Shown here: positions 1 through 6,099 of the stretch, piece by piece
Layout: every line of letters starts with the position of its first letter
How positions within the stretch are numbered: position 1 is the first letter of the stretch
IMG/VR virus record: IMGVR_UViG_2695420427_000010
Reading direction: 5' to 3' (one strand)
DNA length: 7,214 bases
Source of the DNA: a virus
Lineage: Duplodnaviria; Heunggongvirae; Uroviricota; Caudoviricetes
The notes under the pieces: model-generated
What the model was told of the DNA's origin: nothing
Databases searched by the model: none
The model's input: only the letters and a program-made list of their open reading frames with translations
Translations under genes and position numbers: made by a program

Positions 1-229
1 GCGGCGCTGGGCAACGACCCGAATTTTGCGACCACCATGACTAACGCGCTTGCGGGTAAGCAACCGAAAGATGCCACCCTGACGGCGCTGGCCGGACTTA
101 CTACTGCGGCAGGCAAGTTTCCGTATTTTACGGGGAATGATGTCGCCAGCCTGGCAACCCTGACAAAAGTCGGGCGGGATATTCTTGCGAAATCGACCGT
201 TGCCGCCGTTATCGAATACCTCGGTTTAC
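1..229. repeat. Inverted repeat copy 1 of the 3' end of the stf constant region, paired with 4236..4464
   Basis: Direct comparison: the reverse complement of 1..229 equals 4236..4464 except for one mismatch (204 C versus the equivalent of T at 4261, synonymous). Identity stops at 229/4236, inside the variable-side half of the crossover site. Confidence 0.9.
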
Positions 230-1122
230 AGGAAACGGTAAACAAGGCTGGTAACGCCGTTCAGCGTTCCGGCGATAAAATGACCGGAGAACTGAAAATT
301 GGCACGGTGAATGCGCTGCGAATTTTCAATGATACCTTCGGTCTAATTTTCCGTCGTTCAGAAGATTTTCTTCATTTCATTCCGACGGCTGAAGGACAAG
401 GCGAAAACGGTAATATCGGCCCATTAAGGCCATTCGCTATAAATCTGAGAACAGGTGCTATATCTGTCAGCCACGGGGCCAAAATTAAAGGAGGTCTAGC
501 TATTGGAGCTACTGATAACGCACTGGGTGAAAACTCCATTGTTCTGGGAGATAACGACACCGGATTTAGGCAAGATGGAGATGGTATTATTAGCTTCTAT
601 TCAAATGGTTCGCGCATCGGACATATTGATGAGTTAGGATTACATCTTTATAAAGATATTGAATCTAATGGCAGCAATTTTAGATTAAAAAGTAATTACC
701 GCCACCACATTACATTCGCCAACGAAGACGGAAGAATTCGTATGTTTTTGTGGAAAGATAACGGTGGTGATGGTGTTCATATTAATAACGGTTCAGATGG
801 TGGTGGTGATTTCATTTTTAAAACAGATGGGGGATTTGCGCTGGGAAGTGGTGCGCAAGTTGCGTCTAGTGGCGATATTTATGGTTCAGTGTGGGAAAAC
901 AACTGGTTAAGCACATGGCTGCATAATCATGTCGTTCGGGATATTCGTCTTGGCAGCATTGAATATAAAAACGTATGGCGCGACTACGGCTTTGGCGATG
1001 CGTCAGGTTATGTTTTAACAGCCGCAATTAACAGCAATGCGGATGATATTGTCGACACTGTTGCCAGAAGGCCAATTCAGAAATTGATTGGGGGAATATG
1101 GTACAACGTGGGGAGTGTTTAA
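1..1122 (+). CDS. stf: Side tail fibre protein, 3' portion: end of constant region (1..229) plus variable tip cassette C1 (230..1119). Partial, the reading frame is open from position 1 and the gene continues upstream of the window.
   Basis: Frame 1 is open from nt 1. The first 76 codons match the constant-region segment of the minus-strand stf ORF ([12 protein letters not shown]...AVIEYLGL). The downstream cassette carries tail-fibre-like motifs ([23 protein letters not shown]) and ends with TAA at 1120-1122, 1 nt before the tfa start. Confidence 0.85.
209..234. other. Site B, gix/pix/hix-like 26-bp inversion crossover site (12-bp half-site, 2-bp core, 12-bp half-site) at the stf constant/variable junction
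   Basis: TTATCGAATACC-TC-GGTTTACAGGAA. From memory, the Mu gix site is TTATCCAAAACC-TC-GGTTTACAGGAA; the right half matches exactly and the left half has 2 mismatches. The position at a tail-fibre constant/variable boundary is the classical one. Confidence 0.75.
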
Positions 1123-1123
1123 G

Positions 1124-1651
1124 ATGATGCACCTGAAAAATATTAAGGCCGGGAATCCGAAAACACCGGAACAATACCAGCTAACTAAAAAAGCGGGCGT
1201 GGTATGGCTCTTTTGCGAAGATGGCAAAAACTGGTATGAGGAACAAAAGAATTTTCAGCCAGACACCATAAAAATTGCTTACGATGAGAACAACATCATC
1301 GTTGCTGTCAGTAAAGACGTTTCAACTATTAATCCTGAAGGGCTAAGCATAGTTGAAGTTCCTGATATTACGGCAAATCGTCACGCAGACAATAACGGAA
1401 AATGGATGTTTCTGGATGGTAAAGTAGTAAAGAGGGAATATACAGAACAGGAACTGCAACAACAGGCCGAATCACAAAAGGCCGCATTGCTTTCCGAAGC
1501 TGAATCAGTCATCCAGCCGCTGGAACGCGCTGTCAGGCTGAATATGGCGACGGACGAGGAACGCACACGACTGGAAGCATGGGAACGCTACAGTGTTCTG
1601 GTCAGCCGTGTGGATACGGCAAATCCTGAATGGCCACAAAAGCCTGAATAA
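1124..1651 (+). CDS. tfa: Tail fibre assembly protein (Tfa chaperone) for cassette C1
   Basis: Product begins [21 protein letters not shown], the conserved Tfa N-terminus of lambda Tfa / Mu U type. GGGGAG ribosome-binding site 8 nt upstream. Starts 1 nt after the stf stop. Confidence 0.85.
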
Positions 1652-2215: not shown

Positions 2216-3142
2216 TTATACCTGCGATACGTTATACCATGTTCCGTTAATTAACTTTTGTATTGGTCTGAATACTGCCGGATCATCACCATCGACTTCA
2301 CCGATAATACCAAGCCCCGTGATTACATGGCCTGATTTTTCATACATCACGCCTTTCTTCATGGTCTAAACAACTCGTGTGCCAAGTCTGACATCTCTCA
2401 CATAGCGGGAATCAAAGTTACCGTAATCCGAGGGATTAACACGTCCCGTAATATTTATGGTTTTATTACTTTGAATGCTTCCGGAGACAAAGCGCATAAC
2501 ATGGACGTTATTAGCATAAACATCCAGATTACCATCGCCTTTTTGTTTAAAGCCCGTGTCATTATCACCCAATACAATCGAATTACCGCCAAGAGCACTG
2601 GATGTTCCGATACCCAGTGCACCATTCAGTTGACCACCAGATAACGGCAGTGCACCAACATCTCCTGCTGAAGGTTTTCTGGTGGTGTAAAATTCGGACC
2701 AGTCGGCTTCAAAACCATAACCATCACGGGCTGAACGATAAAAAATACCGCCATTTTTATAATTAATCCGAAACTGAGCTGCAGGACAACTTCCTTCTCC
2801 CATATAAAAATGAATAATTAACGTTGATGCACCACTAATAGTTGCGTTATAGGCTCCGCTACTCCAGTTCCATCCAACTGCTTTATCATTCGCAACGGTG
2901 CTTCCTGTTTTCCCTAAGGCAAACGCACCAACATGACTTGCTTTTAATGTGATATCGGAGGAACCATCAAAAGCCACATTGCTTATTTTCCTGGCAGTTT
3001 TTAATTTTGCAGCTGTAGAAGCATTGCCGGATAGTTCACCAGAAAGGCCACCGCTGAATGTTTGTCGATTAGTCCAGGTATTCGCTGTACTGAGTAACGG
3101 TATTTTCTCCCCGCTTGTGCCGAGTTCTCGTAAACCGAGGTT
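2216..3142 (-). pseudogene. Alternative tail-fibre tip cassette C2 with no start codon of its own (would be expressed only when fused at site C), interrupted by a single in-frame amber codon at 2366-2368
   Basis: The frame is open from the codon after the site-C stop (3142) down to TAG at 2366-2368, then continues in the same frame for 49 codons (T, then MKKGVMYEKSGHV...[17 protein letters not shown]) to TAA at 2216-2218. The post-amber tail aligns with the last residues of cassette C1 ([18 protein letters not shown]), and VRDVRLG before the amber aligns with VRDIRLG in C1. Confidence 0.7.
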
Positions 3143-3150
3143 TTAGATAA
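3125..3150. other. Site C, gix/pix-like 26-bp crossover site immediately upstream of the invertase gene (gixR-equivalent position)
   Basis: TTCTCGTAAACC-GA-GGTTTTAGATAA, a near match to the recalled gix sequence TTCCTGTAAACCGAGGTTTTGGATAA. The reading frame through the site is the same as through site B, so recombination gives an in-frame const-C2 fusion. Confidence 0.75.
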
Positions 3151-3204
3151 TGGCGGTTTCTGGCCTGCATGGCATGATTTGTGCTTTTGGACGGGAGATT
3201 CAGC

Positions 3205-3531
3205 GTGCTGATTGGCTATGTAAGGGTATCAACAAATGACCAGAATACAGACCTGCAACGAAACGCTCTTGTTTGTGCAGGATATGAACAAATATTTGAA
3301 GATAAATTAAGCGGAACAAGGACAGGCCGACCTGGATTAAAACGTGCTTTAAAGCGCCTTCAAAAAGGTGACGCACTGGTTGTCTGAAAACTGGACTGAC
3401 TGGGTCACTGTATGCGGCATCTTGTCGTGCTGGTGGTGGAAGCCTAGAAAAAGTATCGGGTGTTGCTGAACCGTGTTGATACATCAACTGCACCTGATAT
3501 TGAGTGGCCTACGAACCCTGTCAGGGAGTAA
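3205..3531 (+). pseudogene. pin: Serine DNA invertase of the Pin/Gin/Hin/Cin family, inactivated: 60 N-terminal codons intact, then multiple stops and frame decay, 3' end missing
   Basis: GTG at 3205 with a GGGAG ribosome-binding site gives MLIGYVRVSTNDQNTDLQRNALVCAGYEQIFEDKLSGTRTGRPGLKRALKRLQKGDALVV, the recalled Pin/Gin N-terminus. TGA at 3385-3387 sits where the family has Trp (VVWKLDRLGRS); further stops follow at 3397-3399, 3445-3447 and 3529-3531. An intact gene of about 185 codons would run to about 3770, which is occupied by the convergent methyltransferase coding sequence. Confidence 0.8.
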
Positions 3532-3545
3532 TCATTGGGATTATG

Positions 3546-3578
3546 CCGCAGCACGTCTTAAGCAAGAACGTGCTGCGG
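3546..3578 (+). terminator. Strong hairpin between the invertase remnant and the stop codon of the stf-methyltransferase fusion; possible plus-strand terminator
   Basis: Perfect 11-bp stem CCGCAGCACGT / ACGTGCTGCGG with an 11-nt loop. On the plus strand it is followed by TTGGATGCTATTTTTT, an interrupted T-tract. There is no T-tract on the minus strand. Confidence 0.35.
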
Positions 3579-3585
3579 TTGGATG

Positions 3586-6099
3586 CTATTTTTTCCCTGA
3601 AGCGGAAAACATTACTACAGTACCTTGAACCCTGGTTTTAACATTCTCGAAATGCTCTGAGAGTATATGTGTTAAGCCTTCTTCGGAATCTTTTGTGTTT
3701 GAAAAGATGCCTTTCTGATTGTAAATGCGCATCAGTTTTTGACCGAAGCTATTGTGCACAACTCCATCGCCAAGAATTGTGGCTCCGTATAGAGTTCCAT
3801 CGTCAGTTAAGGCCTGCGCCGCATTGCGTATTACACAGCTTTTTGTAGATATATTTCCAGGCAGGCAGTGAAGAAGGTAAAACATGGAAATGGAATCAAA
3901 TTGACCATGTAACGCCGCGGGATAAGGTTCAAAAACATCATGGCTAATTTTATGTTTAATTTTTGATTCCCCAGCCCTTGTAGATGCCGCGTTCAGGCTA
4001 GCTTCGTTCAAATCCATTAAAGATATCAGACTACTCTCAGGTACGTGAGTAAGGTAAAACCCAGTTCCAACACCAATATCCAGATGGTTGTTACCTAAAT
4101 GTTCCAGAAAGTGTGGAAGAAGGTGTTCCTTTGTAGGACATCCCCATGCAAGCCGATTTGATACTCCCAAAACCCACCAGTCATAAAGCTTTAGGGTAAG
4201 TGGTGTGTAAATTTTAGCCCCATCATCTGTGTTTAGTAAACCGAGGTATTCGATAACGGCAGCAACGGTCGATTTCGCAAGAATATCCCGCCCGACTTTT
4301 GTCAGGGTTGCCAGGCTGGCGACATCATTCCCCGTAAAATACGGAAACTTGCCTGCCGCAGTAGTAAGTCCGGCCAGCGCCGTCAGGGTGGCATCTTTCG
4401 GTTGCTTACCCGCAAGCGCGTTAGTCATGGTGGTCGCAAAATTCGGGTCGTTGCCCAGCGCCGCAGCCAGCTCGTTCAGCGTGTTCAGTGCATCAGGTGA
4501 CGAATCTACAAGGGCGGCAATCGCAGCCATAACGAAAGCCGTGCTTGCGATTTGGGTATTATTCGTTCCCTGTCGCGCAGTTGGTGTTGTTGGCGTTCCG
4601 GTCAGTGCAGGACTATTTAAGGGCGCTTTCTTGTTCGTTTCACCCATTACCGCCTTAACCGCTTTTGGCGTTGCCGCCAGTGACTCGGAAGTGCTGTTGG
4701 TCGCACTGCTGAGCTGTACTATCCCCTTTTTCGTCGTGCTCGCATCCTCCAGCGCCACGGCGGATGCAATATCCTCTGCCCGTTTTGCTGCTGTCTCGGC
4801 GCGCGTTGCCGCGGATTCAGCAGCAACTTTGCTCTGAGATGCAGCCGTCGCACTGCCTGCCGCCTCTGATGCTTTCGTTGTTGCTGTCGTGGCACTACCT
4901 TTCGCTGCTGACGCTTGTCTGGTCGCCTCATCTTTTGAAGCAGACGCAGATGATGCCGATGACGCCGCTGAACTGGCTGACGATGCGGCTGCTGCCTTAG
5001 AGGAAGCAGCATTGTCTGCTGAAGTCTTTGCATTTGTTTCAGAGGTTTTTGCTGCAGAAGCAGACCTCGCTGCTGCAGTGGCTTGCTCAGTGGCTTTGCC
5101 AGCCTTCGTTGTGGCTGTTGAAGCGGATGATGCGGCGCTTTCTGCCGATTTTCCGGCGGCGGTGGCACTGGCTGAGGCCTGCCCGGCACTTGTTGACGCG
5201 GCACTGGCAGATAATGCAGCCGCTGTTTTTGAACCTGCCGCAGCTGAGGCGCTCTGTCCCGCTGCTGTTTCAGAAGACTTAGCGTTCGTCTCGGACGTTT
5301 TTGCCGCCTTCGCGGAATTTCCTGCCGCCGTTGCCGAGGAAGCTGCACTACTGGCACTTGATGATGCATTCGTTTCTGAAGATTTCGCTGCCTCTTTTGA
5401 GGCCGCCGCACCCCGTGCCGAGGTGGCAGCTTCTGACGCCTTCGTGGTCGCTGTGGATGCAGAAGTGGCTGCCGATTTTTGTGATGCTGCGGCATTCGTT
5501 TCTGACGTTTTCGCGGCACTGGCGCTGGTAGCTGCCGCGCTTTTTGATGACTCTGCAGCAGCACTTTTTGCTGCTTCACGGGCCTTTGTCGATGCCGTTC
5601 CTGCGCTGGAAGACGCTGACTGAGCCGACGACGCGGCCTGTCCGGCTGACGTGCTGGCGGCACGTGCTGAGGCTGCAGCATCGGTTGCATGAGTTGCCGC
5701 CTCGCTGGCTGATTTTTTCGCGGCTGCCGTATTCTGTGCAACCGCGGAGGCGTTACGTGACACCTCTTCCACCATCTGCTCAAAGCGGCGCAGTGCCTCC
5801 GGTCGGACATCATCCTCCGTCATGGCACCGAGAAAATCATTCAGCGTACCTGGTCTGGAACCTTCATAGACGGTAATGGTCCCGGCATGTGAAGGCGGAA
5901 AACCTTCAACCAGCAGGGTGACGCTGTACTGACCATGCTCAACATCCATGCTGTAACGTCCGGCTTCATCCGGATTTTCAGAGGCCACCGTGTTCACCAC
6001 CATCGTGCTGCTGGTTCGTCTGGCCTTCAGCACAATGGTGCAGTTCTGTACTGGTTTTCCTGTGCCATCTTTAAGCACGCCAGAAATTTTTACTGTCAT
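3586..6099 (-). CDS. stf: Side tail fibre protein Stf (lambda-like N-terminal and central constant region, 4237..6099) fused in frame at crossover site A to a C-terminal SAM-dependent methyltransferase-like domain
   Basis: 837-codon ORF with a GGTGGA ribosome-binding site. The N-terminus MTVKISGVLKDGTGKPVQNCTI...GFPPSHAGTITVYE is recognisably the lambda Stf N-terminus. A long Ala/Ser/Thr-rich repetitive shaft follows. The constant region ends ...AVIEYLGL at the site, then LNTDDGAKIY... runs into the methyltransferase motifs. Confidence 0.85.
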   Translation of the reverse strand: MTVKISGVLKDGTGKPVQNCTIVLKARRTSSTMVVNTVASENPDEAGRYSMDVEHGQYSVTLLVEGFPPSHAGTITVYEGSRPGTLNDFLGAMTEDDVRPEALRRFEQMVEEVSRNASAVAQNTAAAKKSASEAATHATDAAASARAASTSAGQAASSAQSASSSAGTASTKAREAAKSAAAESSKSAAATSASAAKTSETNAAASQKSAATSASTATTKASEAATSARGAAASKEAAKSSETNASSSASSAASSATAAGNSAKAAKTSETNAKSSETAAGQSASAAAGSKTAAALSASAASTSAGQASASATAAGKSAESAASSASTATTKAGKATEQATAAARSASAAKTSETNAKTSADNAASSKAAAASSASSAASSASSASASKDEATRQASAAKGSATTATTKASEAAGSATAASQSKVAAESAATRAETAAKRAEDIASAVALEDASTTKKGIVQLSSATNSTSESLAATPKAVKAVMGETNKKAPLNSPALTGTPTTPTARQGTNNTQIASTAFVMAAIAALVDSSPDALNTLNELAAALGNDPNFATTMTNALAGKQPKDATLTALAGLTTAAGKFPYFTGNDVASLATLTKVGRDILAKSTVAAVIEYLGLLNTDDGAKIYTPLTLKLYDWWVLGVSNRLAWGCPTKEHLLPHFLEHLGNNHLDIGVGTGFYLTHVPESSLISLMDLNEASLNAASTRAGESKIKHKISHDVFEPYPAALHGQFDSISMFYLLHCLPGNISTKSCVIRNAAQALTDDGTLYGATILGDGVVHNSFGQKLMRIYNQKGIFSNTKDSEEGLTHILSEHFENVKTRVQGTVVMFSASGKK
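3589..4236 (-). other. Class I (Rossmann-fold) SAM-dependent methyltransferase-like domain forming the C-terminus of the stf ORF
   Basis: Motif I HLDIGVGTGFY (about 4050..4080); an acidic post-I residue in LMDLNEASL; DVFEPYP and FDSISMFYLLHCLP resemble motifs II/III. No DPPY/NPPY motif and no PCQ motif, so it does not look like a DNA methyltransferase. No Met between the junction and motif I. Confidence 0.6.
4231..4256. other. Site A, gix/pix-like crossover site at the junction of the stf constant region and the methyltransferase domain
   Basis: GTTTAGTAAACC-GA-GGTATTCGATAA. The constant-side half-site is identical to that of site B (TTATCGAATACC on the coding strand) and the core is the same. 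The variable-side half keeps the inner GTAAACC but differs in the outer 5 positions. Confidence 0.7.
4236..4464. repeat. Inverted repeat copy 2 (3' end of the stf constant region on the minus strand), paired with 1..229
   Basis: See copy 1: 228/229 identity to the reverse complement of 1..229. Confidence 0.9.
4735..5770 (-). repeat. Low-complexity, internally repetitive Ala/Ser/Thr-rich shaft-coding region of stf (approximate bounds)
   Basis: Translation shows reiterated KTSETNA / SASAA / TATTKASEAA units. The GC-rich codon repetition produces long open frames on both strands (track ORFs 4719..5813 minus, 4889..5623 plus and others). Confidence 0.5.

Follow-up and report, generated by a model that had tools for sequence, protein, structure and literature searches.

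The second tip cassette (C2) of an invertible tail-fibre region in a Shigella sonnei prophage is interrupted by a single in-frame amber codon (TAG), which we take, at a probability of roughly 93%, to be a recent nonsense mutation inherited clonally within a defective prophage. By this account, a change at the first position of a glutamine codon (CAG to TAG) occurred recently, either within clonal S. sonnei or at its base, and clonal descent would explain why most sequenced isolates of the species carry it. Isolates in which the segment has flipped would make an 875-aa side-tail-fibre protein (Stf) without its last 49 residues and, because the prophage is already defective, the mutation is most simply viewed as neutral decay.

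Anatomy of the window and the interrupted cassette

The DNA analysed here (7,214 nt, hereafter the window) is the whole of a public draft scaffold of S. sonnei (CXDV01000178.1, assembly GCA_001260535.1): the reverse complement of that record equals the window at all bases except 4235, which is an N in the public version, and exact products of the window's open reading frames (ORFs) carry Shigella sonnei as their source name, including that of strain Ss046 (UniProt Q3Z104). Because the window is a S. sonnei scaffold, an end-to-end copy of it is missing from complete E. coli genomes (0 of 5,426).

The window opens with the expressed 3′ end of stf, the side-tail-fibre gene of a lambdoid prophage (1-1122, plus strand), which comprises the end of the constant part of the gene (1-228) and an intact tip cassette, C1 (229-1122), and is followed by tfa1 (1124-1651, plus strand), encoding the 175-aa chaperone for C1. 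The opposite strand carries tfa2 (1680-2213), an intact gene for a 177-aa tail-fibre assembly chaperone (Pfam Caudo_TAP) that is cognate to the C-terminal module of C2, and then C2 in its entirety (2216-3142). Two gix/cix-like crossover sites enclose these genes, the left one at the junction of the stf constant part with C1 (203-234) and the right one, its inverted partner, at 3125-3156 (TTCTCGTAAACCGAGGTTTTAGATAA...); the two 32-nt sites are 84% complementary and share GTAAACCGAGGT. Beyond the right-hand site lie a truncated gene for a Pin-family serine invertase (3181-3387, plus strand), whose 68 codons cover positions 2-69 of the 145-position Resolvase N-terminal domain, and, further on, the constant N-terminal part of stf (4236-6099, minus strand), which in the real genome runs on into window positions 1-229 and has been misoriented by the scaffold join at 4235.

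The N in the public record marks the window as two contigs that were joined by the scaffolder at 4235, the left one misoriented. Apart from a single mismatch at 204, window positions 1-229 repeat 4236-4464 in reverse complement, and the true order, as seen in sister contigs, is J-lom-stf-C1-tfa1-tfa2′-C2′-pin′-MTase. An 837-aa ORF (3586-6099, minus strand) that fuses the stf constant part to a class I SAM-dependent methyltransferase is an artefact of this join and is absent from a collection of 15 billion proteins; the junction itself is absent from IMG/VR, as the N in the public record explains. Inversion by Pin at a secondary gix site was considered as the origin of the 4235 junction and rejected: the join sits about 9 nt off the crossover core and corresponds to the scaffold gap. 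Several long ORFs (200-364 aa) run through the Ala/Ser-rich repeats of the stf constant region, out of frame and on the opposite strand (4719-5813, minus strand; 4889-5623 and 4229-4837, plus strand); these probably reflect biased repetitive composition and are probably not genes.

Translated on the minus strand from 3148 to 2216, C2 reads as a stop within the crossover site, 258 open codons, the TAG, 49 further codons and a terminal TAA (2216-2218). The 258 codons make up the body of the cassette (2369-3142), which is homologous to the S′ tip of phage Mu; they read NLGLRELGTSG...NFDSRYVRDVRLGTRVV, up to VRDVRLGTRVV before the TAG, and the first four of them (NLGL) are encoded by the crossover site, the variable part beginning at 3130. 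The premature amber codon (2366-2368, minus strand; CTA on the plus strand) carries a derived base, A, at 2368, where orthologues have G. This translation bears out the in-frame split of C2 that had been described in the first-pass annotation, together with its estimate of about 308 residues for the restored frame (308 codons with the TAG restored) and the likeness that it saw between the end of C2 and the C-terminus of C1 (the 17-residue ends of the two resemble each other). That annotation also spoke of the last 48 codons of the cassette: a 48-aa ORF beginning with ATG does exist, but what follows the TAG is 49 codons, a threonine and those 48, and the range of 2216-2368 given for the split takes in the terminal TAA. 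The severed C-terminal part (2216-2365, minus strand), which consists of the 49 codons and the TAA and includes the 48-codon ORF, is not open by chance, since its 49-codon frame matches the C-termini of intact tail-fibre proteins at 90-100% identity.

The ancestral codon and the two alleles

The closest orthologues, found in E. coli NCTC86 and OZ040035, share 98.6-98.7% identity with the window over 1 kb, and both have GTT GTT CAG ACC ATG in place of the window's GTT GTT TAG ACC ATG; the tail-fibre gene of OZ040035 is a single uninterrupted CDS of 935 codons with the same TAA end. The flanking 12 and 13 nt are matched by 13 IMG/VR contigs, of which seven carry CAG and six TAG. A 91-nt stretch spanning the codon is found in 161 complete E. 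coli genomes, never as a perfect match (the best hits are one base off), and a 26-mer with an N at the variable base is absent from the species-representative genomes of GTDB, where Shigella is presumably merged into E. coli and the E. coli representative presumably lacks the cassette. Because the orthologues carry CAG, the ancestral codon is CAG (Gln), one of those that the first-pass annotation had named as possible ancestors, and the stop came from it by one transition, C to T (plus strand, G to A at 2368). Deamination at a Dcm hotspot (CCWGG) was entertained as the cause of this transition and ruled out, the ancestral context being GTTCAGACC.

Relatives of the C-terminal module carry glutamine at the same position. 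In an alignment of 19 relatives, drawn from a homologue search with the 73-aa C-terminal region that yielded 24 mostly partial proteins and is thus narrower than a broad survey of the family, Gln is at least 90% conserved at the TAG column; no stop occurs at or downstream of this column in any of the 19, and all 17 that extend upstream read straight through it. E. coli relatives in which the module sits on quite different fibre bodies (148-1401 aa) read RLGTRVVQTM. Similarly, the body of C2 matches the Mu S/S′ chimera 8JU3 (E = 8e-55), with Mu S′ showing Q at the TAG position, and its C-terminus matches residues 424-502 of the 504 in Mu S (5YVQ); by sequence alignment, both of these proteins, whose structures are solved, are continuous across the position of the TAG. 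C2 has two marks of a nonsense pseudogene, namely a stop where orthologues have a sense codon and a downstream frame that encodes a homologous C-terminus.

Gene callers report the two sides of the TAG as separate genes: the body of C2 is given as a protein of its last 203 codons only (2369-2977), and the 48-codon ORF is annotated in S. sonnei records as a protein in its own right, either "tail fiber protein (GpH)" or hypothetical. Such calls could be taken to mean that C2 is a natural two-gene arrangement, in which a shorter fibre acts together with a 48-aa peptide restarted at the ATG, and a start codon does lie 3 nt past the stop (TAG-ACC-ATG; ATG at 2360-2362), the ORF that it opens being among those found in the window. 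However, the methionine is that of the conserved Q-T-M of the intact protein, and the 17 nt upstream of the ATG hold no Shine-Dalgarno sequence (best match to AGGAGG, 4/6), in keeping with the earlier remark that no ribosome-binding site is obvious there. Nor do homologous cassettes naturally end at this position, as the first-pass annotation had allowed they might: every homologue examined is continuous and reads through. Among the listed members of the cluster, stand-alone forms of 40-48 aa are all named S. sonnei or E. coli, and some of these are marked as partial. A functional pair of genes is highly improbable on this evidence, and we return to the TAG as a nonsense mutation.

The TAG recurs far beyond the scaffold in which it was noticed. 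Each of the two fragment proteins, of 203 aa and 48 aa, occurs in its exact form on at least 1000 contigs named S. sonnei, the longest of which spans 5.04 Mb, and Ss046 (Q3Z104), a complete S. sonnei genome, is among their source names; six independent contigs of IMG/VR have the identical TAG as well. Given that the window is a draft scaffold built from short reads, with one assembly artefact, the N at 4235, a sequencing or assembly error is a natural suspicion, but such recurrence refutes that explanation, including the base-call error raised in the first-pass annotation.

The intact, glutamine-bearing form of 253 aa occurs as well, on 27 contigs named S. sonnei. Over 3484 nt, a S. sonnei-type locus with CAG (L013) and one with TAG (L016) differ solely at window position 2368, and the same is true over 2879 nt of another CAG locus (L012) when compared with L016. 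Because the CAG and TAG haplotypes differ at one base, the change is recent, and the single-base difference, together with the CAG orthologues, backs the first of the options put forward earlier, that of a recent inactivating mutation. The mutation thus arose on the S. sonnei haplotype itself and is its majority allele now. Three other bases of the scaffold (204, 1549 and 1552) are private to it when compared with all other S. sonnei-type loci; those at 1549 and 1552 fall in the conserved 3′ portion of tfa1 and may represent genuine SNPs or else errors of assembly caused by repeats among the tfa paralogues.

Inversion of the segment and other lesions of the prophage

The segment that holds C2 is an invertible tail-fibre region of the Gin/Pin type, like the G segment of Mu: two opposed tip cassettes with a tfa gene after each (plus strand, C1-tfa1; minus strand, tfa2-C2) lie in the order stf constant part, gix, C1-tfa1 / tfa2-C2, gix, pin′. 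As in Mu G (S/S′, U/U′, Gin), P1 C (Cin) and e14 P (Pin), a constant 5′ part of the fibre gene leads through a crossover site into one of two opposed tips, each cassette has its own chaperone of the tfa/U type, inverted gix-like sites of 26-32 nt form the borders, and an invertase gene adjoins. The likeness to Mu extends to the proteins themselves, the body of C2 being homologous to S′ and its C-terminus to S, and to the occurrence of both orientations in nature. Unlike these systems, the region described here has an invertase truncated to 68 aa, a constant part that is the N-terminal domain of a lambdoid Stf, and a nonsense codon in one of its cassettes.

In the present isolate, C1 is the "on" cassette and C2 is a silent, promoterless copy, because the stf constant part joins C1 and the frame of C2 is closed by the stop within the gix site. 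The segment of about 2.9 kb between the gix-like sites occurs both ways round in closely related S. sonnei isolates. One sister contig (L017) has C1 on and C2 silent, whereas another (L018), which shares with it the same rare Lom allele, has C2 on and encodes an 875-aa Stf that ends at the TAG; a 918-aa product is found on 277 contigs and the 875-aa product on 72. The gene next to the segment is not an intact serine invertase, with only 68 codons of the Resolvase N-terminal domain remaining, and E. coli relatives likewise annotate their invertase gene as incomplete. Because the segment still flips although the adjacent pin has been cut to 68 codons, we infer that inversion must be the work of an invertase whose gene lies at another place in the genome. 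Gin, Cin, Hin and Pin are known to complement one another.

The prophage bears further lesions. In the sister contig L017, the tail-tip gene J (6482-9933 of that contig, upstream of the window's right end) has a premature stop, W68* (TGG to TGA), and a deletion of 22 nt at J nt 1867-1888; three other contigs (L018, L019 and L016) have gaps of at least 22 nt relative to the same intact E. coli J. Truncation of pin is found in E. coli relatives too. With its truncated pin, the stop in J and the 22-nt deletion in J, the prophage is already defective, and the order of the TAG and the J lesions is not readable from the CAG-type loci L012 and L013, which come without the relevant part of J.

Just past the truncated pin, and separated from it by 3390-3585, is the class I SAM-dependent methyltransferase gene (3586-4234, minus strand), whose first seven or so codons are cut off by the contig end. 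E. coli relatives annotate short fragments of tail-fibre-assembly genes beside this gene, and the region looks like a moron or a rearrangement scar at the end of the prophage.

The lesions outside C2 bear on a further explanation, that the TAG is decoded, either by an amber suppressor (a glnV/supE-type tRNA that inserts Gln) or through useful readthrough, to yield a full-length C2 fibre. CAG to TAG is a textbook amber change, of the class that a Gln-inserting suppressor repairs perfectly, restoring the wild type, and the allele is widespread in S. sonnei. The 49 codons past the stop are also intact, but this is expected of a mutation so young (one SNP on an otherwise identical haplotype) and is neutral for either reading. 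Against decoding, the stop is not conserved: all orthologues and homologues examined outside the S. sonnei haplotype have a sense codon, nearly always Gln. In addition, the 7.2-kb window holds no tRNA gene, the same prophage bears lesions that are not amber-suppressible (the TGA stop and the 22-nt deletion in J, and the truncated pin), and the cassette is silent in the present isolate. The TAG thus shares its CAG-to-TAG change with the classical phage amber mutants grown on supE (glnV) hosts but differs from them in belonging to a natural clinical lineage, with no suppressor known or detected and with the stop conserved nowhere else. We regard decoding of the TAG as extremely unlikely and infer that the nonsense mutation is both neutral and unsuppressed.

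Loss of the C-terminal module and fate of the allele

The 49 residues cut off by the TAG align with the extreme C-terminus of Mu S. The Tfa protein of Mu is described as binding the distal moiety of the fibre and ensuring its correct assembly and trimerisation (PMC9608196). Variation among E. coli cassettes points to a similar partnership of fibre end and chaperone: in the cassette of ST131 (EC958, L002), the body is 98.7% identical to that of C2 at the amino acid level, whereas the last 55 or so residues are 39.6% identical, and the tfa of EC958 is 69.5% identical to tfa2, as against 98.9% for that of OZ040035, which shares the C-terminal module. Because EC958 differs in both the C-terminus and the chaperone while sharing the body, the two are exchanged as one module. 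In this part of C2 (about 2216-2382), the junction with the ST131-type cassette is a sharp, mosaic one, at the conserved VRDVRLG motif.

The TAG falls four to five codons inside this module. Because the tip module that is lost co-varies with its cognate Tfa, a fibre truncated at the TAG most likely cannot fold or bind its receptor, and loss of its function would be the expected outcome. It is most improbable that, in isolates with C2 on, reinitiation or low-level readthrough at TAG-ACC-ATG supplies an 875-aa fibre and a 48-aa peptide, or a little full-length fibre, that assemble with Tfa2; if this were true, inversion would toggle between a normal and an attenuated fibre.

The frequency of the TAG raises the question of whether the nonsense allele has been positively selected in S. 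sonnei, for example by abolishing a C2 fibre that is costly or immunogenic once the segment flips. Most contigs carry the TAG (at least 1000, versus 27 with CAG), and the segment still flips, placing C2 behind the stf promoter in many isolates. However, S. sonnei is clonal, so that hitch-hiking explains the frequency; the other lesions of the prophage make its tail genes unlikely to matter; and there is no sign of independent recurrence, all TAG loci sharing one haplotype. The rise of the TAG to high frequency is compatible with drift or hitch-hiking and with selection against the C2 fibre alike, but we consider positive selection very unlikely. We retain neutral decay by a clonally inherited nonsense mutation as the explanation of the allele.

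Such decay fits what is known of the host. Nonsense mutations, indels and IS elements are known routes by which Shigella genomes degrade (Hawkey et al., 2020; PMC7373316), and the mutation in C2 resembles the pseudogenes described there in being a single-base premature stop found in one species, with E. coli relatives intact, and in varying between S. sonnei strains. It differs from them in its target, a prophage cassette in place of a metabolic or surface gene of the chromosome, and in that this C2 copy is silent in one orientation of the segment. Both fragments are already present in public annotation, and we regard C2 as an ordinary, recent pseudogene and not as a recoding signal. Its biological weight is minor: the TAG is one more lesion in the decaying prophage of a species that accumulates pseudogenes. 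For annotation, it means that a single pseudogene cassette underlies two entries of S. sonnei genomes, the "bacteriophage tail protein" of 203 aa and the "tail fiber protein (GpH)/hypothetical protein" of 48 aa, each of which is a fragment of it, and the CAG/TAG SNP, being polymorphic in S. sonnei, could serve as a lineage marker.
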